This document shows positions 4,495 through 64,000 of a stretch of DNA of 64,000 nt, one piece after another. A program made the position numbers and the translations under genes. The notes under the pieces were generated by a model. That model saw nothing but the letters and a program-made list of their open reading frames with translations, was not told the DNA's origin and ran no database searches. Source of the DNA: Nemertoderma westbladi (taxonomy: Eukaryota > Animalia > Xenacoelomorpha); contig JAUCBJ010006608.1 of assembly GCA_032718475.1 (NCBI GenBank), positions 1 through 64,000 on the forward strand. Direction: 5' to 3'. Position 1 is the first letter of the stretch. Every line of letters starts with the position of its first letter.

Positions 4495-5440
4495 ACTACT
4501 ACTAGGATCGGCATGCTGCATTGCAGCTGCATTTTTAAGATTGCTGTGCCGGCTCATCGACAAAATTGCACCGCCACAACTCCCTATCACCCATGACATT
4601 TGCTAGATCATCCGCATCTTAAAGTCCAGTGTCCTTTAAGATGCGTCTCAAGAAAGTCATGGGGTGTCCACCATGCTTATTCACTCCATGAGGCTGCCAA
4701 AGTACGAGATTAGGGACTGGCTGGTCCTCACGGCGAAAGCAATGTCCTGCAAAGCGGAGGCGATTTTGTTCTAGTGTCAAGCTTGGGGGAACCAATGAGA
4801 CACCTCCAATGTTATATAGTGTCTGGTTGGAGATGTGTGCATTGTACTAGACACAATGAACCCGACGTAGCATTCTTGTGAATGTGCCATCCAGAGATTT
4901 GGTGTCCTCAGCAGTTAGAGCCAAGCATGGACTCCCATATAGGAGTACTGGAACTACTGCTGCTCTAAATAATCGGACCTTAAGTTTCCGATTAATTCTC
5001 GGTGACTTCCAAATCCTGGAAAGCCTATTCAAGGCTGCCCATGCCTTTCCCTTACGTATTCGAAGGTCCACACCTGACTTCTGGATCCATGATCCCAGGT
5101 AACAGAAGTCGTCCACATGCTCAAGCATACCATCTTTTGAGCTTATGCTCATCCGATCAGAGACTTGCTGAGGACTTTCAAACTTAACTGTCAAAATTTT
5201 GGTCTTTCTGGAGTTAATAAAAAGACCAACACTAGAAGCAGCATGTTCTAATGAGCCGAGGAGCCGTTGGGCTCCCTCTAGTGATTCTGAGATTACTCCT
5301 AAGTCATCAGCAAAGTCTATATCAGTTACGTACTTGGCAGGATTTCCTTGACTTCTGGAGCCAGTAGGTGGAGTTATCATTATCATCATTATGATGATCT
5401 AAGGACATGCGTAGAACATAGTCAACACCAATTATGAACA
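4495..5440 (-). mobile_element. 5'-truncated RTE-like non-LTR retrotransposon (RT C-terminal half and 3' end)
   Basis: ORF 4847-5389 has DIDFADD, DDFCYLGS and AAVVPVLLYG. It ends in a (TAG)n tail at about 4495-4504 and is closely similar to 56470-57205. Confidence 0.85.
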
Positions 5441-33668: not shown

Positions 33669-34589
33669 CAACATTCTTAATTCACCATCACTCACTCTAC
33701 AACATTTAATTTATTATTATGTAAAGTTATTTTTACACAAGCGCGAAATCGCTCAAAAGTCCGCGCTAACTAACGCATGAAGTGTCTCCTTGAATGAATG
33801 GCTTACTAACAATCTTACTACCAAAAACATTCACCACACGATAGATGAATTGAACTCGGTACTTAGAGATTCCAAGTCCAACGCACGACCAACTTCGCCA
33901 CTGTGCTGTATGATACCTTATTACTAAAACCTAACTGGTACTTAACAAAAACAACGGAATGAATTCTAGAGGTGTAACTACGCCGACCTAATAATAAGAC
34001 TATAACATGGCCAAAACAACGACAAACAAATGACAGCATGTCCTGGAATATAGTGTCGTTATTCAAGTACATGAACCCCCCCCCCCCCCCCCCAAATTTT
34101 TCTACATATCGTAATGAGATTGCATGAAATTGACCATGTACTCGAATAACGACACTATATTCCAGGACATGCTGTACTGGTACTGGTGTGAAAAAAGTGC
34201 AAAGCTCTCCTGAAAACGTATCCCCCACATATAGAAAAAGTGAAATTAAAATTGCAACTTTCACATTTTTTGAAAATTGTTCAGCACTTGAAATTTTATA
34301 GTTCTGCAAAAAATTCAATATATGGTATATGGCAAATTATGGTAGCTATGGTGTTTTTATGGAGATTGTAAATTATATACTAGCTAGTAATAGAAAAAGT
34401 TTAAAACTGTTTTTTTTTATATATTGCGTTTGTATACTGTATGTGTTGTTGATTGGTTAACAAGCCTAAATAATTATCCTAGATAACAGCTGGATCTCAT
34501 TCAGGGACACTTTGCTGAATTTAGATTAAAAACTGTTCTAGAACATTAACCAAAATCAAAAAAGCACTAAAAAGTTGCTATCATTAACC

Positions 34590-37174: not shown

Positions 37175-38091
37175 TGTTCTTGAACGGGACAATTGAACAT
37201 AATTGAACATAATTGAATTGGCAACAACCAAAATTTTTTCGCCAAAGGATACAATTGAATACTTTTGAAACGCTTAGTAATCTGGAAACTCTCTGTAGTT
37301 TGCCGCGATCTGTCACTCACTGCAGCTGGAAATGCGATAAGGATTTTGTTTACCTTTATAGTGTGCGGTTAATAGTGTCTAGTAGGCAGGCCTATAGTTA
37401 GTGAGGTTAAGGCATCTTCTGGTGTTTCTCTGTGCCCTCTCGGTGTCAGACTAATGGCGCGACATCTCCCTGCACTAAATTAATTATTCCATGGTCTAGG
37501 CTAGGCTCCTCCATCCATAAACCCATCCACTCCCATACACTCCATTAACCTCCATGTGGTCTTGTATGTCTCTCTACAAATACAGCCCATGTCCGCAATG
37601 TTATGCCCTGGGGGCTCTCTCATCTACTTGATATCAGACATACAGGCGCACCGCACACAAAGCCATTGTCGGTCCCAGCAAGTTAGCATCTGCTGTGTGA
37701 TCTATAAGATAACTCGCCATAACCTGCCAATCAGATGACTTGAACAAATGTGTTCACATGTGATCACATTGGATGAAATCTGCTTTTTCTGGTGGCCTGT
37801 ACTGTATAAAGAGCGTCAGCCTGCATTTAATAAATATATTTTAATACAAAACAGGTCGAACGCAAAGAGGCTTATAATGAAGACGAGTACTGCATTGATT
37901 ATATTCCTATAAACCACCTGGCTTTGCATATTGAACGTGCGTTTGGAAATAAGTTCGTGCTACCCTTCCGTGGGTGGTAGATGTCGCGGTTATGTATTGG
38001 TGGGTGGGGGGAGGGGGGGGGGGGGTGCAGATTAAAAGGGGTGAACACGTACTGTCCCCCTTTCTTTGATTAATTGGTGGTGTGGGTTAAT

Positions 38092-38289
38092 AGTAGTAGG
38101 AGAAACATAGACCTGGGAGTACTCCTCCCTAGCTTGGGCTACGGGCTAGATCTCGGAGGGCTATTAAAAATGCCAAATTCCGGTGCTAAATCGTGGTGTT
38201 TAATGACCATCTGTCACCAACAGTATTGATTCGCGTCGTTGCCTTGCCTTCAACCAATCGTTGCTTATTCACCTACGCGTAGCCTAACC
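38092..38289 (+). repeat. Left terminal inverted repeat (198 bp)
   Basis: Reverse complement of 54852-55049 with 3 mismatches. Confidence 0.97.
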
Positions 38290-38790
38290 TCGACCGATCG
38301 ACCGACCGACTGAATGCTGTTAACACTACTAACGACGACGTGGCCATCTACACGCATCACCACACATATACCCTACCCAATATTATATCGATTGCCAACT
38401 CAACGATTTACTCACCGCTAGCTAGTGCTACTCTTCGACAGCCATCGCCAATCCAACCAACCAAGCAGCCTACCAGTCCAGCACTATGATACGTGAAATT
38501 CCGCCACGTTCCAACTACACGTATACGAACATTTCCATAGTTACTCAACCTAACCAATCCCACAGCATCTGTGCGATATTGAAAGGCTACCACTAACATT
38601 ATACTGTGCGTTTTTATTATAATAATTATTGATTATTACACACAATCCTATGATTCATATTCTTTCACGTATTTCCTAACCACGCAACCAACCAGCCATT
38701 CATCCACGTTGCACCCCATCTCTTTTCTTATTCGTCGATGATTATGACAGGTCCCATCTCTTCTTCGTTGACTATGCCACATCGCAAATT

Positions 38791-38828
38791 TATATATAAC
38801 TGAATGTTTTTAATAAAATTCATCACTT
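38791..38828 (+). promoter_or_regulatory. Putative Pol II core promoter (TATA plus Inr)
   Basis: TATATATAA at 38791 and TCACTT about 30 nt downstream at 38823. Confidence 0.45.
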
Positions 38829-39055
38829 GTAATCTTCATGGTAATATATTGATACCATATCTAATTTTTTGTTCTCACTCTGAAATTGTGTTATTTCCTT
38901 AATAATTTCTACATTATCTTACTCGTTGTATATTCGTTGGTTGGAAACACTCGAATAAATGATACTGATTCCCACATTGGGTTTCTAAACGTAATTATGT
39001 AACTCAAAGGAAATCTCGTTTGGATGTGCGGGATAATTTTTAGTATCGATGAATA

Positions 39056-39133
39056 TATTAATCAAAGACGACTAGCAAAACTTATATTGAAACTGTTTCA
39101 ATATAAGTTTTTGCTATTCGTCTTTGATTAATA
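39056..39133. ncRNA. 78-nt near-perfect hairpin homologous to polB 43636-43675 (candidate hairpin/antisense RNA)
   Basis: Arms of 38 and 39 nt with one mismatch and one bulge, centred on 39094. The structure is seen directly; expression is unproven. Confidence 0.55.
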
Positions 39134-39230
39134 CAATTTTAGAGTGAGAACTATGGCGTCAATTTATTACAGCAATACGGTTTAAAATTTATCACTTGTA
39201 ATATTTTTCGTATTTATTATTATTATTATT

Positions 39231-40298
39231 ATGGCCTTAACGCAAAAAACCGGAGCAACAAATAGCTGGAAATTTACTTACAATAAATATACTTGTACCG
39301 TCGTTCACAGCAAGTATTTTATTGTGGAATCTCAGGAGGACAACGAATCAATTTGTTTTTCCCATCAAGATACCCGCTATTTGTTAGACATTCTAGAAAC
39401 AACAACCAACAACCAACATCAATCCAGACCAGCAATTATACCAGGTAGGATATATCCAACTCTTCGTTTTGCTCGGGGAAATTTGAATATTTCCATCAAC
39501 CCCACATCGGGTGATGTTTACGTTCAGAAACAAGGCAAATGTAAAGTTCTCAACAAAGCTTTTACTGAAGTTCTAATTCAATACAGAGGGAAATTATTGC
39601 AATTTCTCTCTCCACCGCTAGAGATTATTAGCGATCAATTCTACATTGAATTATCAAATCCAGAGTTTATTGGATTTGTAACAGCTTTTAAAGGAACCAA
39701 CTATGTTGGCTTATGGAAAATCAGCCTCAGATACGCTGATAGTGTTGGTTTTAACTATTATACAGGTTTCAATTTGTCAAAACAGGAACTAACCGTTTTG
39801 TTGCGAGAGTGGGACAACCAAGTCGATGAAACAGACAAGCATCTTTTTGATAAAAATATCATTCAATTATCAGACCGGCTCAAAATGATTAAAACCAATA
39901 ATAAAAAAATTATTATTATCACCAACACCGATAATTCTACTGAATTAGGTGCCGGCGGAAATTCTATTGAGTTGCATTACCTGAATGATAAAGCTCATAT
40001 TAGTTTTCTCAAAGAATCGATGGATGGCGTTTCTCTTACTGAAGCCCATGTTGACGGTTTTGTCCTTTTGGATAAACCTAAAGCATTCGTAGAGATCCCA
40101 TCACCTAATCCAGATGTTGAAGAGAGTTGCTCTCAACCGCAACAGGTCTTTCCTGAAATATTACCTCGAAAGCCAAGATCATCGAGTAAATTTACCAACG
40201 CATCACCTGCAAAGAAACAGAAAGTTGTCAGTAACCCAGTTCTAGTAGAGCCTGTTACTAATTCTCCATGGAAACCAGATTATTATCCTAATATGTAA
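39231..40298 (+). CDS. Polinton accessory protein, 355 aa, candidate PC4-like ssDNA-binding repeats with a disordered basic C-tail
   Basis: Intact ORF. FVTAFKGTNYVGLWK...GFNLSKQELTVL resembles the PC4 core. NLS-like PAKKQK. Confidence 0.7.
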   Translation: MALTQKTGATNSWKFTYNKYTCTVVHSKYFIVESQEDNESICFSHQDTRYLLDILETTTNNQHQSRPAIIPGRIYPTLRFARGNLNISINPTSGDVYVQKQGKCKVLNKAFTEVLIQYRGKLLQFLSPPLEIISDQFYIELSNPEFIGFVTAFKGTNYVGLWKISLRYADSVGFNYYTGFNLSKQELTVLLREWDNQVDETDKHLFDKNIIQLSDRLKMIKTNNKKIIIITNTDNSTELGAGGNSIELHYLNDKAHISFLKESMDGVSLTEAHVDGFVLLDKPKAFVEIPSPNPDVEESCSQPQQVFPEILPRKPRSSSKFTNASPAKKQKVVSNPVLVEPVTNSPWKPDYYPNM

Positions 40299-40344
40299 GC
40301 CTAATCATAAGTTAAACTCTTTGCGGTTTCCAATAGTCATAAGC

Positions 40345-40425
40345 GATTGGTGATTGGTGATTGGTTTAAAATTATTTCCCTCGCTAGCATATAAATGTTT
40401 AGATATAGTCAATATCATATCATTT
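40345..40425 (+). promoter_or_regulatory. Putative polB promoter (three ATTGG/CCAAT boxes, TATA, Inr-like)
   Basis: GATTGGTGATTGGTGATTGG, TATAAAT at 40390 and TCATTT at 40420. Confidence 0.5.
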
Positions 40426-40497
40426 CATTTTATTTTAATCTTTGGACATATTTTATTATTATCATTATTATTATTATTTATCTAAACAAACTTCAAC

Positions 40498-43400
40498 ATG
40501 GATAAAATAACAATATGTTGTTCATTCTGTCATATGAATGTAACTAGACATAATTATTTACGCCACCTACGCTCGCATTTTGAAAGTTATTCTTGTTTTA
40601 AGTGTCATGTCGTGACTTCATGCAGCGAAATTTGTAAACGACATGAAACAACTACTGGTTGTAAAGAAATGGAGTTCCGCACCTATCAATTGACTTGTTC
40701 TACCTGTAATAAAGAGTATACATATGAGAATTATATACGACACGATTGTCACTTGAAATGTTTCTACACAAGAAAGCGTAAATTTCCGCAACATAAAAAT
40801 ATAATATCCAGAAAAAACTTAAGGGTGGCTCTTGGTACATGCGTAACAATTTTTACGCGGGAACAAGAAGCTCACGATAATCATCTTGAAATTTATGTCC
40901 ACGACCTCCCAACTTCTAGAGATTATCCCGATGTAGAAACAGCATTAGTGCAAATTCGAGGTAATATTCTTCAGTTAATATTAGATAGATTGAAAGAAAT
41001 GAATGTTCAAAGACTGTGGTTAGGTCTAAATGTATTAATGTACAGATCACATTTTTCAGAAGGTGAGCAATTGGAAACCTTTTATTTTAATTCTTCCGGT
41101 GGTGCTATTAATACTGTAGATTCATCGCAAAGTTTTGACACATGGTTTGAGTATGTGGTGGAAAATATGTTACAAAAAATAGCCATCTTTAACACACGTG
41201 GTTCGGGGTGGCGTATTAAATCTTTATTAAGGGTTGAAATTAAATTAGCTGAATCTAAGTGTAGGTCGTTACTATATAAGGGGCATGGATATATGGAATT
41301 ACCTAAGGCTCTATCAGGTAAACAGTGTGTTATAAATGTACAATCGGCTGATAATGACTGTTTTAAATGGGCAATTATATCTGCAAAATTTAGTAGCAAA
41401 GTGAAAAACAACAAACAGCGTACTTCGTCGTACAAAAATTATATGAGTCATTTCATTTTTGACAATGGGAAAAATGATTATCCAACAGAGTGGCAGTTAG
41501 CGATTAAACTTTTTGAAAAACAAAATTCAAAATATATAATTAATTTACTATGTTGGAATAACGACAACAAACGCACCCCCGTATCTATATTAAGACAACC
41601 TCCGTTTAGTAAAATTACACCCGATAAACAGTTATTAAATATATTACTTGTAGTAAAAAATAACAATGTACCTAAACTGAATCATTATGTTTGCATAACT
41701 AACCTGAATCGATTGCTGAATATGAGAGCTCTTCATGTCATGAATAGGAAATATTGCGAAAGGTGTTTGACACATTTTTTTCGTGCGGAAGTTCTTCATC
41801 GACACCGTCTCGCCTGCTACCAAGGAAGAAGTCAACGATAGAAACTACCTAATAAAAAAAGAACACACATTAGTTTTACAAATTTAGATAGAACCTTAAC
41901 CCCATTGTTTGTCACCTACTTTGATATAGAATGTATCTTACAACCGTCAGTTAATAATCAAATTATACAGGAGCATATACAGTGTGCTGTGAGTTATTTA
42001 ATTGTTCCCAATACTGAATTAATTGATGCTCCAAAATGTCATTTGAAAACATTCGTAAAGTCAAATAAGAATAATTGTATTCAAGATTTCTTAGATTCAT
42101 TATATACTGATTTAACTGAATTATATTGTTGGTCAGAAATATACACGCATAAAACTATGTCATTTACTAATATTGATTTTGTAAATTTTGAACAAGCAAA
42201 ATTTTGTTTTTATTGTAATGTTACTTTAAATAATAATGTAGGGAAAAACAGACATCATTCACATATTACAGGTAAATATATTGCGGCAGCCTGTAATAGT
42301 TGTAACCGAAGTTTATCATTGAAACGATACCTGTATGTACTTTGCGGTCATAATTCCAACAATTACGATATACATTGTATATTACAAAGCGGATTTAGAG
42401 ATAAGAAATACACAGATTGGGATATAAAGGTTATACCGAGAAATACAGAACGATATATTTCACTGAGTGCATTTATCCCAATTAAAAACACTTCTAAGAA
42501 AATTGAGTTACGTTTCTTAGACACATATCAATTTTTAAGCTTTTCTTTAAGTAATTTAGTTGAGTGTTCAACAAAGGATGTAGCGAGTCATGATATAAGC
42601 TCAATTTTACCTATTACTCTACAAGAAATGAAATATTTTTATCCAAACTTGAATAACTCAACAATTAAACGGAAAGAAGTATTTCCATACGAGTACTTGA
42701 CAGATATAAATAAATTTAATGATACTGGTTTGCCGTCTATAAATAATTTTTTTTAGTAACTTAAGTCAAAAAACATGCACAATTGAAGATTATACGTTTG
42801 CGGGAATATCATGGGTAGAATTCGACTGTGTGAATCTCAAAGATTATCTTTTAGCCTATTTAAAACTCGATGTTTGTTTGCTTGCTGATATATTTGAGAA
42901 TTTTAGGAATGTTTGTAAACAAAATTACGATTTAGAAGCGGTTTTTTACTGTAGTATCGCGTCATTTACCTATGATTGCGCGCTAAAATATAATAAATGT
43001 AAAATAGAATTAATAAAGGATTATCAGACATATAGAGATTTTGAAAAATCAATTAGGGGTGGTGTTTCATTTTGTCGTAAGCATTATATAGAATCAAATA
43101 TACCAGGTACAAGTACATATGATTCTACTAAGGAAGAATGCCATATTTTTAATATTGATTTCAACTCTTTATATTCTGGGAATTTAAGTAAAAAACTACC
43201 CACCTCACAATTCAAAGAAGTAAGTATTAAACATTTAGAGAATGCAATTCCAGAAAAACTAATCGAGTACTTGGTAGATTTAGACATTGATGGATCTACT
43301 GGATATTTTTTAATATGTGATTTAAATTATCCCAAGGCTATTCACGATCAAACATTACAATTACCGTTAGCTCCTGAGCATTTAAGTATAAATGAATCAA

Positions 43401-45084
43401 TGCTTTCGCCTTATATGATGGAAAAATTTAATAACTTGTCAATACAAAGAGGTACCTCCCGTAAATATAGAATGTCTATACCAAAACTCATGCTGACACA
43501 ATTTGATAAAGAGTTTTATCATTTACATTTGAAACTGTTAAAATTTTATATAAAACATGGATTAATTGTTACTAAACTACATAAATTATATTCTTTTCAA
43601 CAAGAATTTGTATTTAAAAATTACATCGATTTTAATATTAATCAAAGGCGACTGGCAAAAAGTTATATTGAAACAGCTGTCGCGAAATTGCTCAATAATT
43701 CGCTGTTTGGCAAATCAATAGAAAAGATAAGAGATCGATGTAACTTCCGTATTGCAAATAGCAACGATAAATGCGATCAATTGGTAAATCGTATTAATCA
43801 TGAACAATTTATAATATACAATAATACACTATCAGGACATTTATTAGTGAAAGACTCTGTAACTCTCGATAAGCCTATATTTATTGGTAGCACTGTGTTG
43901 GACTTGGCTAAATTGGATATGTATGAGCTGTATTACAATAAATTGCTACCTATTGAGAAAGAATTAAACTGCCGTATTGAAATTGCTGCATCAGAGACTG
44001 ACTCATTGATAGGTTGTTACTATAATACATCGCAGAATAATTTTTTAAAAGCATTAATTAAAAATAATATTTTAGATACATCCAATTACCCTAAGGATCA
44101 CCCACTCTACAGCGATAAAAATAAATCCAGACTCTATTACTGTAAAGACGAACTAGCCTCACGTGAAATTAAACAAGCAGTATTTTTAAGACCAAAATTA
44201 TATTCAATTTTGGAATGGAATAATAAAAATATTCGTAGAGCAAAAGGTATTACAAGAGCTGTTATGGAAACGAATATTATACATGAAGAATATTTAAAAG
44301 CATATAACTCAAATGAAGAAATAAAAAAAAACATACACAGATTTCAATCTAAATTACATCGTATTTATACCTTAAAGCAAAATAAATTTGCACTCAGTAG
44401 CTTTGATGATAAACTTTATTGGGTTGATAAAAATCAATCACTTCCTTGGGGGCACTATAAAACAAACCTCAAAAAACCTATAAAAATATCAAATATACCA
44501 ATTTATGAAGAACCAAAAGACGACGGTGTTGATGATGAATATCAAATAGTAAATAAAAATATAAGTTGTAAGCAGATTATTTATGGACTTAATTTAAAAG
44601 AATTAAAAAATCAATTGAATGGTAAAATTGTACTCAAACCTAATCAGTTTATATATAAGGTATTTGGTGCAACCATATTAATGTTTACAAATGGACGAAT
44701 AACAATTCTCGGTAGAAAATATAATTTTAATAAAGTGAAAAAACATATATTAGAAAAAACAAACATTAATTTGATTTTTAAATCAATCAATTTGTGTACT
44801 TATATTTTTAGTATCGATACTGTAATTTATAGGTTACTTATAAACAATATCGGTTTTATGTTATATTTGATAATGTTAAACTAGAAATTTCATACGACCC
44901 TGAAATATTCAATAACTGTAAAGTCAGAATAAATAATATTGTTGTTGTTTGCTGTTTCTACACTGGTAAATGTACATTAATGTGTTCCCCGTTTAAATTT
45001 CATATATATTATCCTATATTCAACAAACTGGTTAATAATTTATTATTGTTTGGTGTGGGGGTTTTTGATGTAAAATATAATTAG
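40498..45084 (+). pseudogene. polB: Protein-primed family B DNA polymerase with N-terminal Zn fingers, endonuclease-VII-like insert and C-terminal TBP-like domain; disrupted
   Basis: Motifs RGSGW, YFDIEC (ExoI), HNSNNYD (ExoII), FPYEY, YLKLDV (ExoIII), IRGG, DFNSLY, KLLNNSLFGK, ETDS, KLY and AKG. Lesions: in-frame TAG at 41839-41841, an extra T in the T8 run at 42747-42754, and a frameshift near 44820-44835. Confidence 0.95.
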
Positions 45085-45791
45085 TGTGAGTGAAATTTAT
45101 TGTTGTTGCTGTTTGGTGGTGGAGATTTTTACTGTAAAATATATATATATTAAATTGGAGGGAGAAGAAATTTATGAATATTTTTTTTTTAAATCAACAA
45201 CTAGTTTGAGGGGAAATTAACTAACTAACTTCAGTAGAGCGATTGCTTGTAACACTCAAGTAGGCATAGTATACTCAGTGGCCGTAGCTAGCTAGCTAGC
45301 TAACTAAGCATCGCTGCTCACGAGTGAGCTACAATAGCGCATCTGTTACTTATGAGTGTGCGTGTGTGTGCAGCAGACAACGCTAAGCTCAGTGAGAAAA
45401 AGATTAGGGGTATGTGCTGGTATTCATAGTCAAAGACGACGCCATCCTATCTGTTACTAGTCTGTATACCGGCACATATTATTATTATTAAAACATCCTC
45501 TATGCATCTCCCTACATTCAGAATAGAACAATGAACAGAGCATATATCGCTAATCCGCATGGGAAAGGTTTATGTTCTACATTTTGTTAACTATGTTAAT
45601 TATTTTATAATTTTTTGTAATGTAAACATCTGCGACCCACTGCAAAAATATATATAAACTCAATTTTCAAACAATGACCTATAATTTTGTTAACCAAAAT
45701 AAGAAAAAAAAATAAAAATACCGGTATACTGTATCCACCCTGTCTGTTACCCTTAGACTATATATATAAACTAACCTGAGACAGCAAGAAG

Positions 45792-46193
45792 ATGACTTTC
45801 GCCTATATCAACAACCGGTCGTTGAAAAGCAGCATAAAGTTTGATTTTGAGAGTGAGGATACTTTTGTATCATCCTCAAACGTATCTGATTTGGAAATCA
45901 GATACATTAATAAAAAATTTGAAATCGGATTTACCAATATCATCAATCACGAACATGGTGTAACAAAGTTAGAAACAACAAAAAACTTTACTTTGAACAT
46001 AAGAATAAATCCAGGAACGGAAGAAGAAGAAGAAGTTACCGGTAATCAAAACGAATTAATACCACTACAAGAGAATTGGGAAACAGAGACCGCTGCAACT
46101 ATACCAGAACCGATAGAGACTATTTGGAAAGAAATTAAACTAGCAATGCCTACCTGTAATAATAATAGGCCTAATCATCAACATTTTTCATAG
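45792..46193 (+). CDS. Hypothetical Polinton protein, 133 aa
   Basis: ATG-initiated ORF about 25-30 nt downstream of TATATATATAAA. No recognised motif. Confidence 0.55.
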   Translation: MTFAYINNRSLKSSIKFDFESEDTFVSSSNVSDLEIRYINKKFEIGFTNIINHEHGVTKLETTKNFTLNIRINPGTEEEEEVTGNQNELIPLQENWETETAATIPEPIETIWKEIKLAMPTCNNNRPNHQHFS

Positions 46194-47248
46194 ATGGATA
46201 CTGGTATCTAACTAGTACACATGTACACCCGTACACTCATACTCATTTCTGCATTTATAAAGTAGACCTAAATGTCACCGGTCTGTGTATGTCTATATTA
46301 TATGTAATTTAACTTAAAAAGTGGACGCATAAATAAATAAAATAAACTAACTAACTATGTTTTATATAGGTTCGTTAACATAGAGTGAATGTTAGTAACC
46401 AGAGAATGTGGTGGATTTTATATAGTTATAGCTCAAACCACACCTATTGTATCAGCTAGAGTAACAGAGTGCGAGGGGATTTTATAGGGCCTATAGCGCT
46501 ACCGAGGCCTAACCATACCTATTGTATCAATGTGGTAGGGGGGCTTTCAGTTGAGGAGTACCGTAGTCATTAGGCCTATATGCCTAACGAATGAATGTGT
46601 GCCTATCCGTGTGTTCTAAAGGTTAACCGTAAAGCATATTGGGTCAACATTCGAAAAGGGGGCCGCATAAAGTTAACTATAGCTGTATAGGCTTACCTAT
46701 GCAACAGCAGTAGCCCGCAGTAATGTAGATTAGACCAATTAAAGTTGTAAACAGAAAATTGGAAGCATTCAAGTGTAATAACCTAATCCTTAAATCAAAG
46801 AAACCAGCACCAGCATGCTCTTGCTCTATTTAAGTATACCGGTACAAGAGTGCTACGGTGCCGGTACCAGTAGGCCTATTGTTAGGTGGGCCTCCTCTAA
46901 TGCTGCATTCACGAACCCCCATGTCGACTTAATTTAATTTTATTATTAGTAAGTACGGTACCGGTAACGCTAAAGCTCTGTGGTTGCTGTTGGGGCCATT
47001 CTGCCGTTCTACAGTTTAGCATTGTTGGTATATGTAGTAAAATCAGCTAGCTACTGGTAGTTAAACTCTGATACAACAGCCGGCTACCGGTAGGTGAGGT
47101 GTGTTTGTGTGTACGTGTGAAAACTTAAGCCCTATACCTTCAGTCAAACTGAGATATTAAAAAATAGATTTTAATGTTTTTATTATTTTTATTGACATTA
47201 AAACAATTACATTATAGCATCACATTACATTACATGCTTAGAGTAAAC

Positions 47249-47863
47249 CTACAGTACATCTTCCACCGCAGTTATTTCTTTCTGTTTATCATCATCATCA
47301 TCAGTCGCAGTTAAACGCGTTAAACGCTTTCTCACAAAAAATCGTTTCAATTCAAACCCACCGACATGTTTTGCTGAGCAATACCGCAGACAGTTATCCT
47401 TTGTGTTTAAGTGGAACGCACATTTATTTTCCAGTGCAATAAATTGATCGTGGAAGCGACAGGGGGTTAAATAATTGTAATATTGCTGATTATATATCCA
47501 CAATTTATCCATCGAATTTGCTGCGAGAACATCAAGTTGGGAAACTAATATTGCCCGCTTCATCAACCCAAATACATGTATATTTTTTTTATATTTTAAA
47601 TGTCTCTTCATGTATTTTTTAAAGTCATCTTGCGAAATGTCGCCGTAGTCCCAGGGCAAATGAGAAGTCATATCTCGTAAATTGTTTACGTGAGCTACAT
47701 CTAAAGCTGATAACTTAATATTAGGTGGGCCTTTAATTAAAAACGTCTTTACATTAGTTTTGGTGTAATTAGAATCGAATATAGCAAATTCTTTAAATAC
47801 TACCGGATACTCTTTATTGTCTATCTTATAATATTGAAAATCAACAAAAATAATATTATCCAT
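47249..47863 (-). CDS. Polinton-associated DnaQ/Maelstrom-like nuclease-fold protein, 204 aa
   Basis: IFVDFQ...VFKEFAI...HLPWDYGDI...IHVFG..K and C-terminal C..H.......CS..HV pattern. Confidence 0.65.
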   Translation of the reverse strand: MDNIIFVDFQYYKIDNKEYPVVFKEFAIFDSNYTKTNVKTFLIKGPPNIKLSALDVAHVNNLRDMTSHLPWDYGDISQDDFKKYMKRHLKYKKNIHVFGLMKRAILVSQLDVLAANSMDKLWIYNQQYYNYLTPCRFHDQFIALENKCAFHLNTKDNCLRYCSAKHVGGFELKRFFVRKRLTRLTATDDDDDKQKEITAVEDVL

Positions 47864-47894
47864 TTTATCTGATAAACAAAAGCTAAATGATTAA

Positions 47895-48350
47895 TTACAA
47901 TGCTTGTTGGTTTATTTTATAATAATTAACAAGCCATTTATATAATATTATTTCATTTATTTCCACATTATTTGTAAACGCACTCATTGGATAGTTTGTG
48001 TGAATTCGATTTACCAAGTAATAAAGACAGTATAGGCCGCATGTGGTCCTCCTTGGGTCTTTAAATTGTTTGCGAGTAGTACGCCATCTTGCGGAATTTT
48101 TCTCAAGCCATTTTTCGATGCATCTGTTTGGATATTTTGATCCGAATGAATCAAATAATTCAGCCTCATTATCTTGTATATATATTGCGATCCAATGAAT
48201 CCCAGGCAGATGCTCTTTATCGGTATTTACTATTAACCCATAATCTCTTTGCTTATTATTATTATCTAATTTAGGTAATTTATTAGCTGGAAACGCTCCC
48301 AAATAGTGACCACCCACTGGAAACATATCAAGGTCCTCTGTAGATAACAT
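47895..48350 (-). CDS. Adenain-like cysteine (maturation) protease
   Basis: IVNTD...GIHWIA...FDSFG...TCGLYC with His/Asp/Cys triad. The usual oxyanion Gln appears to be Lys. Confidence 0.92.
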   Translation of the reverse strand: MLSTEDLDMFPVGGHYLGAFPANKLPKLDNNNKQRDYGLIVNTDKEHLPGIHWIAIYIQDNEAELFDSFGSKYPNRCIEKWLEKNSARWRTTRKQFKDPRRTTCGLYCLYYLVNRIHTNYPMSAFTNNVEINEIILYKWLVNYYKINQQAL

Positions 48351-48423
48351 ACTTAATCGATATGTATTTCTTTCCTGCTATTTAAACTTAATGATTGATC
48401 ATAAATATTAAAAACGATTACAT

Positions 48424-48897
48424 TTATGCGGGTCGCTTTAAATCTCTATAAACTTTTTCTACAACTGACCTTGTTGACGGTTTCATTTTATTTAATGCTT
48501 TATTAATAACCGTATTAGCCTGCTGATGTAAGACCCGCTTACCTTTTGGTATTACGTGTTGTCTCATAAATTTTGTGGTAAATGGTAAAGCTTTTTGTAA
48601 AACTTTTTTAGCTAATGGCTTACCAAATTTTTTCAATGTCGATAAAGCGTCTGTAAATATACCTTCTCCGTGTTGATTTGCCCGCATACCTCTACGATAA
48701 TGCTGAAAACGACGTTGTTTTAAGTTTGGACCAAATGCACCAATTTGTTGACCGTAAGGGTCAATATATGAACCACCTCGAAAAACAGGAACTTGCGTCG
48801 AGCCTCTCGTACTTCTACCACCTTTAAAATCAGCAAGATTAGAGTCTGAACCACCATATTGAGGTTTACTGTATCTTTGAAATAAATCAGAATCCAT
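48424..48897 (-). CDS. Basic virion core / protein-VI-like precursor
   Basis: QYGG, VFRG and QHGEG motifs followed by amphipathic IFTDALSTLKKFGKPLAKKVL. Confidence 0.75.
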   Translation of the reverse strand: MDSDLFQRYSKPQYGGSDSNLADFKGGRSTRGSTQVPVFRGGSYIDPYGQQIGAFGPNLKQRRFQHYRRGMRANQHGEGIFTDALSTLKKFGKPLAKKVLQKALPFTTKFMRQHVIPKGKRVLHQQANTVINKALNKMKPSTRSVVEKVYRDLKRPA

Positions 48898-48898
48898 T

Positions 48899-49702
48899 TT
48901 AATTTATTCGTTTAAAGTGTAAGGTAATAGATGTTGTCCCGTATTCAAAATTCAAATCTTTTCCTTCTTTGTCTGTTATTTCAATATGAATGTATGTTAT
49001 CTTATATGATTTTTTTACAGGGATATAATGAATTGTATCCTTGACAAATTCTTTATTTATTACGCTACCATATTTCACGTCATCAGGTATCGCAACACGA
49101 CGAAGTAAAGCTAAACCAAAGTCATTAATTTATTGATTTTCAATTATATTAGGGCATAAAAATACCATCTGGTAAGCTTTTTCTCCATTTCCGATAACCT
49201 TTATTAAATAGCCCTTTATATTATTTTTCGTCTTCAAAATAATTTTAAAATTTGGATTTAAATTCGCGCCGAGATTATTTTCAGTAATTCCAAAATAATA
49301 GGCTAATTGTTGACCTATAAATAACTCTCGCACAGTTTTCCCTAAAATAAATTGCAATCTATTTTGCTGAGTATTTTCAACTATTTGTAATTTATCTTTC
49401 AACGCCCCCGTGTTAAAATAATCTATAATGTCATTGATACTGTAGAACAACCCGGATGGAAGTGTATCCTCAAAATTTTTTTTCCCTTTTTTTAATAAAA
49501 TAACATTCTCTACATTGTTATACATGGACGGCAACGTTGCTAAGTAAAATATACTTTTTGTACCTACCACCCAGTTTTCGTTTGGGTTTATAGGTAAGGC
49601 GCCATGGAAATTGATCTGATAACTACTAGCAGAATTACGTGGAAAATCAATTGGACAGGAGTTACTTGGTAGTCTTACATAGAATTCATCCATCGCTGCC
49701 AC
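48899..49702 (-). pseudogene. Minor capsid (penton) paralogue 2 with one in-frame stop
   Basis: FYVRLPSNS...FPRNSASSY N-terminus. After TAA at 49130-49132 the frame continues ...LLRRV...HYIPV...IEITDKEG...ITLHFKRIN*. Confidence 0.85.
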
Positions 49703-50558
49703 CCCATATTAACTTAAGTGTTATAACAGTGCGACCTCTGCTAAAATTAATTAATTCGCCTTGATCGTCACGTAAAGTAATTAAGATTGTTTTTAATTTT
49801 TTATTCAACAATGGGTAATAGCAAATGCTCTCGTATTCATGATTAATATATTTTCGATTTAATTGCGTTAAAGGGCAGGTTCTTAAGAGCGGAGCTAAAG
49901 CATCACCAACAAATGAGCTCTTAATAATATCAGTATATATGAAAATTGTATCTTTATTACGTGTTATATTCGTGGGAGCTGGAAAATCTAAAATGCCAAT
50001 TTCCGAAATTTTTGGTCCGCTATAATTTAAAATTAATATCGGCTGTTCTATATTGCTTAATTCATCTACTGTAGTGGTACTGTATATATCCCAATTCGGA
50101 ATATCCGGATGATTCTGATCCAATAATGGTTTTAAGCCTAGAATTTGTATTAAATCACCACGTAGACTTAATTGTATTTTTTTCAACTTTTTAGGAAATT
50201 TAAATTTAATTCTAGAATTATTTGTATTAAAAATGAATTCGAAATCTCTATATTTCGCTTCAGAATTAAACAGTTTATTTATATCATCAATAATCACTTG
50301 AATAGAGCTATGCATACCAGGAAATAAACTATATAATTTGGCATCTTTTGCATCTACCCCGATTGACAGCGAGATTTGAGTTTGCAGTGTAATATTACTG
50401 TATGTTGCTTGGTATTGAAGCTCAGCCAAACCAATTTTAGCGTTTGGACCAATATATAATTCTTCGGCTAAATCAACAGTAAACTCACTAGGATTATTAT
50501 TGGGGTAAGTGTTTAATGAGCTATCTGAAAGTAGAGTGATATATGTATCTGTGGCCAT
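49686..50558 (-). CDS. Minor capsid (penton) paralogue 1, 290 aa
   Basis: YITLLSDSS..YPNNNPSEFTV.L, IGLAELQY, IFIYTDII...VGD...PLLR, YYPL and ITLRDDQG. Confidence 0.9.
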   Translation of the reverse strand: MATDTYITLLSDSSLNTYPNNNPSEFTVDLAEELYIGPNAKIGLAELQYQATYSNITLQTQISLSIGVDAKDAKLYSLFPGMHSSIQVIIDDINKLFNSEAKYRDFEFIFNTNNSRIKFKFPKKLKKIQLSLRGDLIQILGLKPLLDQNHPDIPNWDIYSTTTVDELSNIEQPILILNYSGPKISEIGILDFPAPTNITRNKDTIFIYTDIIKSSFVGDALAPLLRTCPLTQLNRKYINHEYESICYYPLLNKKLKTILITLRDDQGELINFSRGRTVITLKLIWGGSDG

Positions 50559-50808
50559 TATTATTATTATTTAAGCTCTCTCTCTCTACTTGACTCCATT
50601 GTACATACAGCACAGTATAATGTTAAATTATAGACATCTGTGACCACGTTCATTGTCGCATCTTCTACAGTATATGCGAGGGATCAATATTTTACTGGCT
50701 TTATTTAAAACGGATGAACTATAGATATAGTAATATCATTCGAGTTAATATTGATTAATTACGGTCATATGCGACCAAAATGAATTAATATACAGTATAA
50801 ACCTAAGC

Positions 50809-51893
50809 TTATTGAATATGCTGTACCCACGACTGTTTCTTGGATCCGATGAATCGGACTAAATATTCTTTCTTCCCATTGCGTACACATTCTTTAAGTT
50901 TGCCAATATTTTTGTCAATTGGTAGATAAATATTACTATTCGGGTGGACCTTTTGGAGTTCGTATGAATAAAATGAGCCATTTATTATAGCTCCAGCGCT
51001 GTCCTTAATATCGAACATTACCGCTGGTACTCTATCCAACCTGACACGATGAATAATAAATAATTCACGTGTCCATTGTTCTCGATAGCCTTTAGCAAAA
51101 GCAGTACGATAGATAATCGTACTGTATCTCCAACTTTAAATTTTATTTTCTTGTGATTAATCTGTCTATATTTCCCATATAATCTATTCATTAATTCAGT
51201 TTCATTAAATTTATTAACTTCAATGGAAGTCATTTGTATTGTCCTATGATATGACCTATTATAAGCATAAATGAGCTTCGGTAAAATTTTTATCCAAATA
51301 TTATTTCCCCGTTGCGTGAAAATTTTGAACATCTTTGTTTTTAATGTTCTATTGAATCTCTCGACAATAGCCGCCTTATTCACAGAATACATTACGTAAT
51401 ACTGTATACCTAACGTATCTAAATATTTCCTTACAGATTTATTTAGAAACTCAGACCCTTGATCAGTCGCGATTCTGTTTGGTTTTCCTTTCTGGAATAT
51501 TTTTTGCAATATACTAATAATTTCAATACCCTTTTTTGTTTTCATACCATAGGCAAAAGCAAGCCTGCTAAAGGCATCAATACATGTTAATATATAGTTA
51601 TAATTATTATTTTGCGATTTATATTGCTGCATATCCACCAGATCTATCATATATATATCTTTTAAGCCTCCCGTAAATATTTTAGATGTTGGATAATGAT
51701 GTCTACGTGGAGCGTGAAGGGTGTATGTCTTTTGCCCGCTCAGCCATTTCTGGGCTTGTGCTGGTTTGATGTTTGCAGCTTTTGCTAATTTTGCAACACT
51801 TGCAAATCCCGCGGGGGATGAAGGATCTAAATAATTTTTTAACAGTTTTTTGTCTAAGCTTCGGCTTAAAATCGGTTTCATCTTGCGTGGCAT
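50809..51893 (-). pseudogene. int: RVE/c-integrase with chromodomain-like C-terminus; one frameshift near 51110
   Basis: YTLH, MIDLVDM, IDAFSR, TDQGSEF, VERFNRTLK, YNRSYHRTI and FKVGDTVR. The alternate frame continues FAKGYREQWTRELF...GSFYSYELQKV...YLVRFIG. Confidence 0.95.
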
Positions 51894-51944
51894 CTTTTCG
51901 ACAACCACAAGTAATATGTATATTCAAATCTCTTATAAAGGGCA

Positions 51945-52115
51945 TCACCGTAAGAACAACTGAAATTTTTTAATTATTTTCTTTGAAGTTGATGTTTTAA
52001 AGGGTTTTCTTTTTGTAGTATTTACTCTAGGTATATCTTGAGGTTTTAAATCAGTAGCTAACGGTTTACTCGATACTAAATATAATTTTCTAAATGTTAC
52101 TCCTGTTTTAACCAT
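51945..52115 (-). CDS. Small basic ORF, 56 aa (MVKTGVTFRKLYLVS...), possibly a shortened conserved Polinton gene
   Basis: ATG lies 2 nt after the upstream stop and the ORF fills the gap before the integrase. Confidence 0.4.
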   Translation of the reverse strand: MVKTGVTFRKLYLVSSKPLATDLKPQDIPRVNTTKRKPFKTSTSKKIIKKFQLFLR

Positions 52116-52117
52116 TA

Positions 52118-52501
52118 TTACCGTCCGCGGTTAATTATTTTCGCAATAGCTGCTCCAGCAGCGGCGGCACCGGCACTCGCGGCGAGTTTCGCACCAATGC
52201 CGAGTAAGGGTATTAGAAACGGTAGTATACCTCCAGATTGATTGCTTAACTTTTTTCTGTAACTTGATATATTTTTTGTTTTACAGTTGAGTGCTTTCGA
52301 TACCTTCTTATAGCGGCGAATATTTCTAAATGAATGAGGGGTCAATTGTACGTTACCTTTTAGAACATTTAATGCAGTATTTACAATGAGCCGTATTAAT
52401 TCGTTACTCACGGTATGGTTAATAAAATAAGTTCTTTGTTGAGGGGTAGCGCTGCGTAGAAATTCCAGTTTGTTACGATATTTCTGCACAAGTCTATTCA
52501 T
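52118..52501 (-). CDS. Conserved Polinton basic protein with QSGG cleavage-like site and hydrophobic C-terminal peptide
   Basis: ALNVLKGNVQLT...RKKL.NQSGG|ILPFLIPLLGIG. Confidence 0.8.
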   Translation of the reverse strand: MNRLVQKYRNKLEFLRSATPQQRTYFINHTVSNELIRLIVNTALNVLKGNVQLTPHSFRNIRRYKKVSKALNCKTKNISSYRKKLSNQSGGILPFLIPLLGIGAKLAASAGAAAAGAAIAKIINRGR

Positions 52502-52538
52502 TGTTGCAACATTATTGAAAATTGTTACAAAATATTAA

Positions 52539-53206
52539 TTATTTATCATTATTATTATTATTATTATTTTCGCTACGTTTATAGTCAATGTAATTTTTAA
52601 TGTAACAATTATGATTACGAAATATATCCGATCTAAATCTTAAATGTTCGGGTGTTTCCTGTCGTAAATCAATTAAGAAATGCGAAAATGGTTCAATTGT
52701 CGCATCTTGATAGGAATCAACTAAAAATTTGGTCTGCCCTGGTAACATCTGCTTCGCGAAATTTAAAACCGATAAACTGTCTCGCGGATTTTTCATTAAT
52801 ACTAAAGTATGGCTATTAATTGATCTTGTGCGGTTATGCTTCCCACCGTAAAACATGTTTTGCATTATAAAACAAATAAATATATTGGAATGATGAGCTA
52901 CCTTAGTAAACAATACAGTTAAAGCTGTACTGGACTCAGTTTCTGTTAATAAATCATCTATAATTAATAAATCTCGACTATTCACTAAACTATCTATATT
53001 TTCCGGCAAACCTTTGTAAAGGTGAGTAATACCCAGAATAGTTGGTGGATTGCTCCCGTAACAATATACAATTACTATGTATATAACAATAATTGATGCA
53101 ACTACAATATTAGAGTACTGCATATTTAATTAACATATGACACAACTACAGTATGTGATGCTCGCTGCAACAAAAGGTGCTATTTCCAATTATAGTATAG
53201 ACTCAT
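52539..53206 (-). pseudogene. A32/FtsK-like packaging ATPase with damaged N-terminus (no Walker A)
   Basis: VYCYG, LLIIDDL (Walker B), LFTKVAHH, MQNMF, KNPRD, QDAT and IDLRQETP. No GxxGxGK is visible upstream and that region has stops. Confidence 0.9.
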
Positions 53207-53219
53207 TTTCAATGTAATT

Positions 53220-53672
53220 TCAAGCATGGTGAGCATCTTTATACGCGAAATAATGATAGGTAACATCGGCGGTTTGGAAATCACTTCCCGAGAATTTCGC
53301 GCTAATGATTTTTTTATGTTCGCTGCTAAAAAAATAAGGAATATAGTAGCAACACCGTCGTACTATATTTCTATAAAAAATATTCTCCAATATTGTAAAT
53401 AAATCTCCTGGATCATTACTTTCCGCAGAAATATAAGTTATATTGCGAAGCTCTTTCCAATAATAGGGTTGGTATCTTGCCAACTTTATATTTAACTTAG
53501 ATATGGGTGCGCGACAAATAGGACAAATTTTAGAACAATAATTATTCATTTCGGAATATTGTATAATACATTGTACGCAAGTTGCATGTTTATTTTCACA
53601 TTTATAATAATCTCGATGTTGTTGCAATAACTTAGAATAGCAAACTGGACATTTTTCATTTAAAATATCCAT
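53220..53672 (-). CDS. RING (C3HC4) finger protein, putative E3 ligase
   Basis: CPVC...CENKHATCVQC...CPICR. Confidence 0.85.
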   Translation of the reverse strand: MDILNEKCPVCYSKLLQQHRDYYKCENKHATCVQCIIQYSEMNNYCSKICPICRAPISKLNIKLARYQPYYWKELRNITYISAESNDPGDLFTILENIFYRNIVRRCCYYIPYFFSSEHKKIISAKFSGSDFQTADVTYHYFAYKDAHHA

Positions 53673-53840
53673 TTTCCAAATTTTAAAGTAAATTGAAAAT
53701 AATTACCACAATACACAACAACAACAACAACAAACAAATCTGTTATACTGTATATGCAATTACTACTACAATTTTCGATTATTTAAAAACATCAAAATTT
53801 TATATATAATCATAAAATATTTATAATATAGAGGGAAAAG

Positions 53841-54284
53841 TCAAGAATCAATGATATTATCAACATATTCAACATTATCTGTTGATTCTTCAGGTTCGAT
53901 AAAGGATTCTTTTGAAATCATTACAATAAAGAAAGACATAATTTCGTAGGGGCTATGCCGATTTAGCCGTATTTCAAACTTTTCACCAGCTTCGTTGTAT
54001 TGTGTAATAACAATAAACCCCTCTATCATGGATAATAGTAAGATGTTGATTAATTTTCCCTCATGCTCAACTTTCAGGTTGTAATCTAAGAGATGAATAC
54101 TATTATCAGAAGCATCAATATCAATTGAGCTTAAAACTTTCCTGGCTTTTTCAGAAAACTCAATTTTATATTTATCATCTCCCTGACGGTAAATTGTATA
54201 ATCAATAACAATATAGGCTTGACCATCTTCTGCAAAAAATGAATGCCTTACTATTGGCATAACCATATCGGAATCAGAAGACAT
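53841..54284 (-). CDS. Hypothetical acidic Polinton protein, 147 aa
   Basis: Intact ATG ORF with a TATA-like (TA)n tract about 95 nt upstream. Confidence 0.65.
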   Translation of the reverse strand: MSSDSDMVMPIVRHSFFAEDGQAYIVIDYTIYRQGDDKYKIEFSEKARKVLSSIDIDASDNSIHLLDYNLKVEHEGKLINILLLSMIEGFIVITQYNEAGEKFEIRLNRHSPYEIMSFFIVMISKESFIEPEESTDNVEYVDNIIDS

Positions 54285-54851
54285 TATTTAATTTATTTTA
54301 TTGTAAATCAAACAAACAAAGTAAAAACTTTTAAACTAAAACCATTACAAATGATTAATTGTGATTAAAGCAAGAGATTATATATATATAAGATATTTTC
54401 AAAAATAATACAGGTCTTAAACTGAGAAATAGCCTAAATTCGGTTTATTGATTGGTTGATTAGCCGGTAGGGAACTACTGTATAAACAAAAAAATTATTT
54501 GGTTCTGCGTAATAATAATAATCACTAATGCTCGTATACGCGTAGCTGGAACGTGACGGAATCTCATGTATCATACTGGTTGGTTTGTTGATTTGGCGAC
54601 AGCAGTCGTGGAGTTGGCAATCAATATAATATAATATATGCATGATGCGTGTAGATGGCCACGTCGTTACCATATACAGTATACAGTGGTGGTGGTAACG
54701 TGGCAGTGGTGGTAACGTGGTGAAAAGGTGAATAACATTAGGGTTAGTCAGTCAGTCGAGTAAGGCGGGCATCGTGAGGTTAGGCTACGCTACGATTGGT
54801 TGATGGCAACTGCTGATGGTGACATATGGTGAAGTAAGGCAGACATCGCGT

Positions 54852-55049
54852 GGTTAGGCTACGCGTAGGTGAATACGCAACGATTGGTTGAAGGCAAGGC
54901 AACGACGCGAATCAATACTGTTGGTGACAGATGGTCATTAAACACCGCGATTTAGCACCGGAATTTGGCATTTTTAATAGCCCTCCGAGATCTAGCCCGT
55001 AGCCCAAGCTAGGGAGGAGTACGCCCAGGTCTATGTTTCTCCTACTACT
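54852..55049 (-). repeat. Right terminal inverted repeat (198 bp)
   Basis: Matches the left TIR and is followed by TSD GTTAAT. Confidence 0.97.
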
Positions 55050-55199
55050 GTTAATCTCTCATAACCTGATTTTGTGATACAGTCGCACAATTTTAATTTG
55101 TATCTCATAACTGGGCCTCGTGCTGCGCGAAGGCCCCACGAACGTGTAAGCTTATGCACGATGTATTTCATATAAATAAAAGCGAACATAGATGAAAAG

Positions 55200-56469: not shown

Positions 56470-57205
56470 TCTGCCGGTGTAGATAATGATGAGATCAGGC
56501 ATTTTGAACTTCCGGCCAAATCAGTCCAAATCAATCCTATGCGTAAGCTCAAAGGATGGTATGCTTGAGCATGTGGACGACTTCTGTTACCTGGGATCAT
56601 GGATCCGGAACTCAGGTGGGGACCTCCGAAAACGTAAGGGAAAGGATTGGGCTGCCTTGAATAGGCTTTCCAGGATTTGGAAGCCACTGAGAATTCATCG
56701 GAAAATTAATGTCCGAATATTTAGAGCAGCAGTAGTTCCAGTACTCCTCTATGGGAGTCCATGCTGGGCTCTAACTGCTGAGGACACCAAATCTTTGGAT
56801 GCCACTTTCACAAGAATGCTACGCCGAGTTCACTGTTCATACACTATATAACATTGGAGCTGTCTCATTAGTTCCCCCAAGCTTGACACTAGAATAAAGC
56901 CGCCTCCGCTTTGCAGGACATTGCTTTCGCGGTGAGAACCAAACAGGGCATAATCTTGTGATTTGGCGGCCTCATGGAGTGAATAAGCAAGGTGGACAGC
57001 CCTTTCTTAAGTCTTCCCCCCAGTCCAGTCTTTCTTAAGACGCATCTTAAAGGACACCTTACATGAAAATGAGGATGATCTAGCAAATGACATGTATGGT
57101 AGGGAGTTGTGGCGGTGCAATTTTGTCGACAAGCCGGCACAGCATTTATAATATATATATATAATGCAGCAGTAATGCAGCATGCCGATCCTAGTAGTAG
57201 TAGTA
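56470..57205 (+). mobile_element. 5'-truncated RTE-like LINE copy
   Basis: Same family as 4495-5440, ending in GATCC(TAG)4. Confidence 0.85.
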
Positions 57206-63200: not shown

Positions 63201-64000
63201 GAGGAGCGTGAATGTGAATGGGAGGAGCGTGAACGTGAATGGGAGGAGCGTGAACGTGAATGGGAAGAGCGTGAATGTGAATGGGAGGAGCGTGAATGTG
63301 AATGGGATAAGCGTGAACGTGAATGGGAGGAGCGTGAACGTGAATGGGAAGAGCGTGAATGTGAATGGGAGGAGCGTGAACGTGAATGGGAGGAGCGTGA
63401 ACGTGAATGGGAGGAGCGTGAATGTGAATGGGAGGAGCGTGAACGTAAATGGAAGGAGCGTGAACGTGAATGGAAGGAGCGTGAATGTGAATGGGAGGAG
63501 CGTGAATGTGAATGGGAGGAGCGTGAACGTGAATGGGAGGAGCGTGAATGTGAATGGGAGGAGCGTGAACGTGAATGGGAGGAGCGTGAATGTAATGGGA
63601 GGAGCGTGAATGTGAATGGGAGGAGCGTGAACGTAAATGGAAGGAGCGTGAACGTGAATGGAAGGAGCGTGAATGTGAATGGGAGGAACGTGAATGTGAA
63701 TGGGAGGAGCGTGAATGTGAATGGGAGGAGCGTGAACGTGAATGGGAGGAGCGTGAATGTGAATGGGAGGAGCGTGAACGTGAATGGGAGGAGCGTGAAT
63801 GTAATGGGAGGAGCGTGAATGTGAATGGGAGGAGCGTGAACGTGAATGGGAGGAGCGTGAACGTGAATGGAAGGAGCGTGAATGTGAATGAGAGGAACGT
63901 GAATGTGAATGGGAGGAGCGTGAATGTGAATGGGAGGAGCGTGAACGTGAATGGGAGGAGCGTGAATGTGAATGGGAGGAACGTGAATGTGAATGGGAGG
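60248..64000 (+). mobile_element. 5' part of an LTR retrotransposon (LTR about 60248-60813, PBS-like TGG at about 60817, decayed Bel/Pao-like gag)
   Basis: TGT...ACA followed by AAT and TGGTG. Gag-like LNPEDSISK at about 61310. Confidence 0.5.
61485..64000 (+). repeat. 21-bp minisatellite GAA(T/C)GTGAATGGGAGGAGCGT, about 120 copies, running off the window
   Basis: Directly visible. Encodes E(C/R)EWEER in one frame. Confidence 0.99.

Follow-up and report, generated by a model that had tools for sequence, protein, structure and literature searches.

DNA viruses can direct hairpin RNAs against the mRNA of their own polymerase. MiR-BART2 of EBV suppresses BALF5 (PMC6989438), a miRNA of the Heliothis virescens ascovirus targets the viral DNA polymerase (PMC3534370), and both have been proposed to favour latency or persistence (PMC6989438, PMC3534370). 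Viral miRNAs that pair perfectly are described as encoded antisense to the gene they target (PMC3534370). In Drosophila, the target itself is the typical source of a hairpin RNA, and hp-ODox2 is antisense to a transposon (PMC10317233). In maize, an inverted duplication of a transposon's own gene gave rise to the silencing hairpin of Mu killer (PMC3440606). Mu killer is one rearranged derivative whose hairpin measures about 4 kb and is read through from a host gene. Giant miRNA hairpins, described as highly base-paired, exist in invertebrates (PMC12553114). Polintons have been found among piRNA-sized reads (PMC3500242), and in the titles and opening abstract lines of the literature outside subscription journals and supplements no Polinton-encoded hairpin, miRNA or small RNA was found. 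At the locus described here, a piece of a DNA polymerase gene is found again as a hairpin within the same integrated element.

The element is a Polinton/Maverick copy of 16,958 bp (38092-55049, no strand assigned, ends AGTAGT...ACTACT), which lies in the window, i.e. the whole analysed DNA stretch of 64,000 nt. It is flanked by the 6-bp target-site duplication GTTAAT (38086-38091 and 55050-55055), a length that we take to be the rule for Polintons/Mavericks, and bounded by terminal inverted repeats of 206 nt with 98% identity (38087-38292/54849-55054). A joint corresponding to the empty site, with 6 shared letters, occurs in public contigs from three studies (X1, X3 and X4). Beyond the 206-nt terminal repeats, subterminal inverted repeats (38335-38533/54528-54667, 78-87% alike) suggest terminal repeats that were longer and have decayed. 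The family B DNA polymerase gene of the Polinton type (polB, 40498-44884, plus strand), whose relatives include an adintovirus PolB, is interrupted by a stop near 41840 and changes frame near 42750. A gene block on the minus strand (47249-54284), assigned by Pfam and by tblastn from related loci, comprises a protease, two minor-capsid-type-like genes, an integrase, an ATPase-like gene and a RING gene. The Pfam matches of the element are rve for the retroviral-like integrase, which has a frame change near 51100, and Peptidase_C5 for the adenain-type protease (47895-48350, minus strand). The two minus-strand genes resemble long minor-capsid-type genes of the relatives in tblastn from related loci. 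For the ORF at 52539-53123, related loci have ORFs that match it at 42-47%, whereas no family match was obtained; its ATPase label and the minor-capsid labels are tentative assignments from sequence motifs. Like the adintovirus-like Polintons/Mavericks, the element combines a size of 17 kb and terminal inverted repeats with a PolB, a retroviral-like integrase and an adenain-type protease, three proteins given as part of the gene set of that group (PMC6431247, PMC10175614). Unlike in typical members, genes of the present copy are broken, and a major capsid gene is missing.

The state of the copy deserves some detail. A 435-aa gene beside the protease of the related locus L096 folds as a double jelly-roll capsid protein like those of PBCV-1, Sputnik and mavirus; the capsid candidates obtained no name from a PDB sequence search or from PHROGs, and it was the fold comparison that named them. 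Neither this gene nor its relative in L031 has a match in the window at E 1, and at 48377-48428, adjoining the protease where L096 and L031 have their capsid gene, none is present. The major capsid gene has probably been lost from this copy, making it a defective member, and the broken reading frames of polB and integrase likewise mark it as defective. Contigs of X3 show loose ends on both sides of 48428, hence other copies may hold extra sequence at this site. About 2 kb at 45084-47249 are mostly non-coding with short palindromes and a TATA-preceded ORF of 133 aa (45792-46193), and matched none of the ORFs of related loci.

Fragments with DUF5641 and DUF1759, which we take to be domains of BEL/Pao retrotransposons, flank the element and point to an animal host. 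The window furthermore contains a tandem array with a 100-bp unit in at least 112 copies (12422 to about 23800), a purine-rich 21-bp tandem array with at least 111 copies and an open frame of 306 aa (61341-64000), and an inverted pair of a reverse-transcriptase/DUF6451 retroelement end (4495-5148 and 56541-57201, 86-95% alike). Another inverted repeat in the flank (34033-34175), whose arms (41 nt, 98%) are separated by a spacer of 61 nt, is perhaps a small non-autonomous transposon.

The inner hairpin at 39056-39133, reported as a 78-nt inverted repeat by the earlier note, was found again as a stem of 36 bp that is interrupted by one mismatch and a bulge of a single base and closed by a 3-nt loop, with a folding energy of -41.1 kcal/mol that is equal on both strands. 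The z-score for 39040-39150 is -8.80, with none of 200 dinucleotide shuffles folding as well, and the hairpin ranks first among the 141 windows (120 nt each) scanned across the element, with z values that are rough given 8 shuffles per window. The second-best window (50692) was discarded as a comparable candidate, having no long stem and only a 16-nt match elsewhere. Between positions 38000 and 55100 no Rfam family matched at the gathering score, and the exact pattern of the hairpin apex had no match in viral contigs. Stem length and stability (36 bp, z -8.8) thus lie within what is asked of miRNA or hairpin RNA precursors, i.e. a stem of about 30-35 bp or longer, and the extended complementarity to a source target that is also expected of them is present.

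That target is polB. The right arm, the predicted guide strand (39093-39133, plus strand), is antisense to the polB mRNA at 43636-43676 with 37 of 41 positions (E 1.8e-9), and the left arm, the predicted passenger strand (39056-39093, plus strand), is a sense copy of 43636-43674 at 90% (E 7.5e-8). When the 17 kb element is searched against itself with BLAST, nothing scores better than these matches except the terminal repeats, the subterminal repeats and the hairpin. The previously reported agreement of 36/40 between the reverse complement of 39094-39133 and polB 43636-43675 was reproduced. Two of the four differences would indeed be G:U pairs; this is no independent evidence, however, because any A-to-G change in the target automatically yields a G:U pair. 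The predicted target in the polB coding sequence (43635-43676, plus strand) lies just upstream of motif B, as the earlier note had placed it, and encodes NINQRRLAKSYIETAV before KLLNNSLFGK. Since this region has no insertion compared to 25 relatives, polB is the donor and the hairpin the copy. The predicted guide faces the polB of this copy with one G:G and one U:C mismatch, and 22-mers of the right arm pair with it at -22 to -27 kcal/mol.

The distribution of the differences is also informative. Three differences from polB in 40 positions are common to both arms, two of them synonymous and one a Ser/Thr exchange, which suggests an origin of these changes in the coding gene or of the arm in a sister polB; chance alone would give such a synonymous pattern with a probability of about 0.13. 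The arms differ from each other at two positions, roughly the number that decay after insertion would produce, judging from the 5 differences in 202 positions between the terminal repeats. The 12 nt upstream of the left arm, an unpaired sense flank, match polB 43624-43635 in register at 7/12 positions. Compared to 36/39 in the paired part, this gives a Fisher p of 0.012 for a comparison picked after the data were seen; the paired part looks better kept than the unpaired flank.

The feature is larger than had been described before and extends from 38841 to 39172 on the plus strand, where it coincides with a putative GT..AG intron of 332 nt in the leader of ORF1. Every element named by the earlier note was found again: TATA at 38791, the Inr-like TCACTT at 38823, GT at 38841 and TTATTACAG with its end at 39172. 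The whole putative intron is predicted to fold with -112.4 kcal/mol, with pair probabilities of 0.84-1.0 in the terminal helix and mostly above 0.9 in the outer helices. In this predicted fold the 3' side is a single uninterrupted strand (39094-39172) that meets its partners one after the other in three distinct segments of the 5' side, leaving loop-outs of 11 nt and 162 nt on the latter. Below the polB-like stem, a middle helix of 21-23 bp with two G:U pairs is formed by 38871-38893 (plus strand) with 39129-39151, of which 39131-39151 and 38871-38891 contribute 21 bp. The terminal helix joins 38841-38859 (plus strand) to 39152-39170 at 17 of 19 positions. Its first paired base is the G of the putative donor GT, and the AG of the putative acceptor protrudes as a 2-nt 3' overhang, so that both ends of the putative intron are paired. 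The donor site agrees with the consensus at five of nine positions.

Both outer helices together form a duplex of -41.3 kcal/mol compared to a shuffle mean of -18.0, a value reached by 0 of 1000 shuffles, and the middle helix (strand 39134-39151) was likewise matched by 0 of 1000. For the terminal helix, none of 846 windows of 40 nt in the element reached 17/19 when the 3' strand was fixed, and it ranks first among 37,150 GT..AG pairs, of which 11 others reach 16/19. Taken alone it was matched by 7 of 1000 shuffles and is a marginal, weaker piece of evidence. Of the 42 outer-helix positions on the plus strand, 37 are Watson-Crick pairs, 3 are G:U and 1 is A:C, which leans slightly to a plus-strand RNA. 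The outer helices and the looped-out 5' segment (38894-39055, plus strand, 162 nt) have no match elsewhere in the present copy. Three explanations for these parts were rejected: the 162-nt loop is not a wholly decayed polB copy (4-9/20 in register), the outer helices are not guides for genes in the present copy, where they find no target, and 38841-39170 is not an inserted small transposon, given that no duplication flanks it.

Upstream of the putative intron lies a putative promoter, P1 (38791-38833, plus strand), which consists of a TATA followed about 30 nt downstream by the initiator-like motif TCACTTGTAAT. Its core TCAYTTGTAAT occurs three times in both strands of the 64 kb, always inside the element, at 38823 (plus), 39192 (plus) and 54354 (minus). 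The motif is thus element-specific, is present at both element ends pointing inward, and is common to P1 and the right-end gene; the copies at 38823 and 54354 follow a clear TATA. The second initiator-like motif marks a putative promoter P2 (39192-39202, plus strand) downstream of the hairpin and 39 nt before the ORF1 start. The AT-rich box upstream of P2 is no canonical TATA and overlaps the putative acceptor, hence the stretch around the acceptor might represent a promoter duplication instead of a splice site. The unspliced leader contains six upstream ATGs and the spliced one a single ATG out of frame with ORF1. The host gene of the putative intron, ORF1 (39231-40298, plus strand, 355 aa), has no Pfam match and no usable match in the ESM Atlas; of two sequence searches one found nothing and the other one weak match. 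According to a structure model of low confidence (pLDDT 41), for which Foldseek found PURA (E 1.1e-3) and the adintovirus MOSUB (E 1.6e-3), it is probably a tandem PC4/PUR-fold protein that would bind single-stranded nucleic acids.

Our preferred reading, to which we give a probability of roughly 0.48, is that the element encodes a hairpin RNA directed against its own polB. A polB stretch of 41 bases has been copied into the ORF1 leader and duplicated in inverted orientation. P1 would make the hairpin RNA, in which the 3' strand is predicted to pair with the three 5' segments and to close the helix on GT and AG. Splicing or Drosha cutting would free the stem, and Dicer would then yield a guide of 21-22 nt from 39093-39133. 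This guide would pair almost fully with the polB mRNA, which would allow slicing and lower the amount of polymerase mRNA. The small RNA would likely dampen the replication of the element by means of the host RNA-silencing machinery. The RNA from P1 would translate ORF1 poorly due to its upstream ATGs and P2 would bypass the hairpin, therefore the choice of promoter could set a quiet or a productive state. The earlier proposal of a self-targeting small RNA gains from the paired ends of the putative intron, the shared promoter motif, the identification of polB as donor and the lack of any sign that the hairpin is peculiar to this copy, and loses from the absence in distant relatives. The anatomy of the locus fits such an RNA better than the earlier note could know, and the proposal is partly supported.

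Among described systems, the locus shares with the EBV and ascovirus miRNAs that a hairpin of a DNA virus faces the mRNA of the virus's own polymerase (PMC6989438, PMC3534370). Unlike these miRNAs, its guide would be a duplicated piece of the target, located 4.5 kb away on the same strand of an integrated Polinton. A target-derived inverted repeat with extended complementarity is also typical for the Drosophila loci Nmy/Tmy and hp-ODox2 (PMC10317233); those, however, are host loci that suppress selfish genes, whereas the present hairpin, with a target-derived stem of 36 bp, rides inside the selfish element. The likeness to Mu killer is the inverted duplication of the transposon's own gene (PMC3440606), but here the cassette is short, follows a promoter motif of the element and is apparently common in the family. 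Conventional mirtrons have a helix ending at the splice sites with a 2-nt 3' AG overhang (PMC10508058), and the putative GT..AG pair shows this geometry in the predicted fold. In mirtrons the intron itself is a short pre-miRNA hairpin, whereas here 332 nt with loop-outs of 11 nt and 162 nt on the 5' side carry the target-matching stem at the apex and not at the base. The feature may work like a mirtron without being classed as one. If expressed, the hairpin of this defective Polinton would work like a target-derived hairpin RNA.

The hairpin is probably not restricted to the present copy. Four runs from four studies, aligned to the element, gave 22,111, 7,674, 475 and 618 contigs at 80-100% likeness, and the family comprises many contigs at 80-95%. 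In X1 the two 579-bp bins containing the hairpin region have depths of 108,000 and 126,000, and the next two bins 166,000 and 122,000; in three studies the depth of the two hairpin-region bins is near that of ORF1. All runs consist of contigs, and no run listed as containing the element is recorded as RNA; X5, which may be RNA, reaches a depth of 2-3 over the hairpin region, a value without bearing on expression. A deletion of the hairpin only is not among the 15 joints shown of 87, which go down to a depth of 293; the shown part of the variation in the sister contigs also comprises 40 of 1483 substitutions and 12 of 205 indels. A larger deletion joins 38917 to 39615 and thereby loses 38918-39614 including the hairpin (depth 1643 in X1 and 34.5 in X4). 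Because of the bin depths and the lack of a hairpin-only deletion among the joints shown, the hairpin probably characterises the family instead of being an accident of this one copy, at a resolution given by the wide bins of 579 bp.

The strongest alternative, less probable than the preferred reading but a real rival to it, assumes that the hairpin is a neutral relic of template switching. During strand-displacement replication a polB piece would have been copied into the leader, a fold-back reverse copy would have been made while the looped part was skipped at a 5-base microhomology, and this one accident would have spread with the family. A fold-back with jumps should leave behind one continuous 3' strand that faces several 5' segments, here three, and the microhomology TGTTA/TATTA is found at the jump. 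The deletion derivative without hairpin and the distant relatives fit as well. The expectation that related Polintons keep a hairpin matching their own polB failed in all 102 distant loci (27-40% polB identity, those of the metagenome scan being the best 80 of 466), which is a partial test with only 34 of the 102 loci being 8 kb or longer. The strict scan of these loci found 18 hairpins, none matching the respective polB; one of them, in L071, has a third copy, a local repeat about 100 bases away and not polB. A mismatch-tolerant 22-mer scan with 21 hairpins agreed, again without any match to polB, and a single-protein scan of viral contigs found no relative. In the related Polinton L034, two adjacent hairpins lie downstream of polB (10521-10735) and match none of its own genes.

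When polB was compared to the rest of each locus in 67 loci, the matches were AT-rich or repeats, plus those in L021, L062 and L075. L021 has a 106-nt inverted match at its two ends, and L075 a weak match between two coding regions. In L062 the intact polB contains an in-frame insertion of 36 nt that is the inverted copy of an upstream repeat, its 12 residues being missing from the aligned relatives. The source is a palindrome-rich repeat that occurs twice upstream and was copied inverted into polB (2022-2148 and 3773-3813). Inverted copying between polB and non-coding DNA therefore occurs in this group without a hairpin, and the sequence of L062 supports template switching as origin and keeps the neutral rival alive. 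On the other hand, a neutral duplication would have to end precisely at a GT, with an AG following, just behind a promoter motif; the paired part resembles polB more than the unpaired flank does, and the stem is about as long as that of a miRNA precursor, for which 30-35 bp are given as typical (PMC12553114).

Two further interpretations are unlikely. First, the fold might be a cis-acting RNA structure without any guide acting in trans, which would control splicing or translation of ORF1 by hiding the splice sites and the ATG at 39153, polB being nothing but raw material. The terminal helix covers donor, acceptor and this ATG, and the outer helices match no gene of the present copy; this interpretation nevertheless leaves unexplained why the inner stem has about 90% identity to polB and the unpaired flank does not. 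Second, and comparably unlikely, is an extended version of the self-targeting hairpin, a modular silencing cassette released by splicing. Its 79-nt strand with three partners would be cut by Dicer every 21 nt, beginning at the intron end. One of the products would be a guide against polB, and further guides would be directed at genes missing here, e.g. the capsid, or at host genes, while the two tandem promoters would form a latency switch built from captured pieces of own genes.

It is quite improbable that the guide is meant for a competing sister subfamily or an incoming relative, i.e. for superinfection exclusion, and was captured from that relative's polB. The arm does read as a codon-preserving polB variant in a family of many diverged contigs, but the right arm still pairs well with the mRNA of its own element. 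A function at the DNA level, in which the hairpin would form in the displaced single strand and act as a site of pausing, binding or recombination, e.g. for the ORF1 protein, is very improbable, since the equal stability of the inner hairpin on both strands and the resemblance of ORF1 to single-strand-binding folds are faced by outer helices that pair better on the plus strand as RNA (3 G:U versus 1 A:C; -112 versus -106 kcal/mol on the opposite strand) and by 15 shown joints of 87 without any hairpin-to-polB joint.

Returning to the element-encoded hairpin RNA against polB, the locus makes exact predictions, i.e. a splice junction 38840/39173, a guide from 39093-39133 and a cut within 43636-43676. 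How integrated Polintons stay quiet or become activated is poorly understood. If the preferred reading is true, a eukaryotic virus-transposon would use the RNA silencing of its host to limit itself, and it would have built the guide by duplicating a part of its target, a route that is known for plant miRNAs and fly hairpin RNAs.
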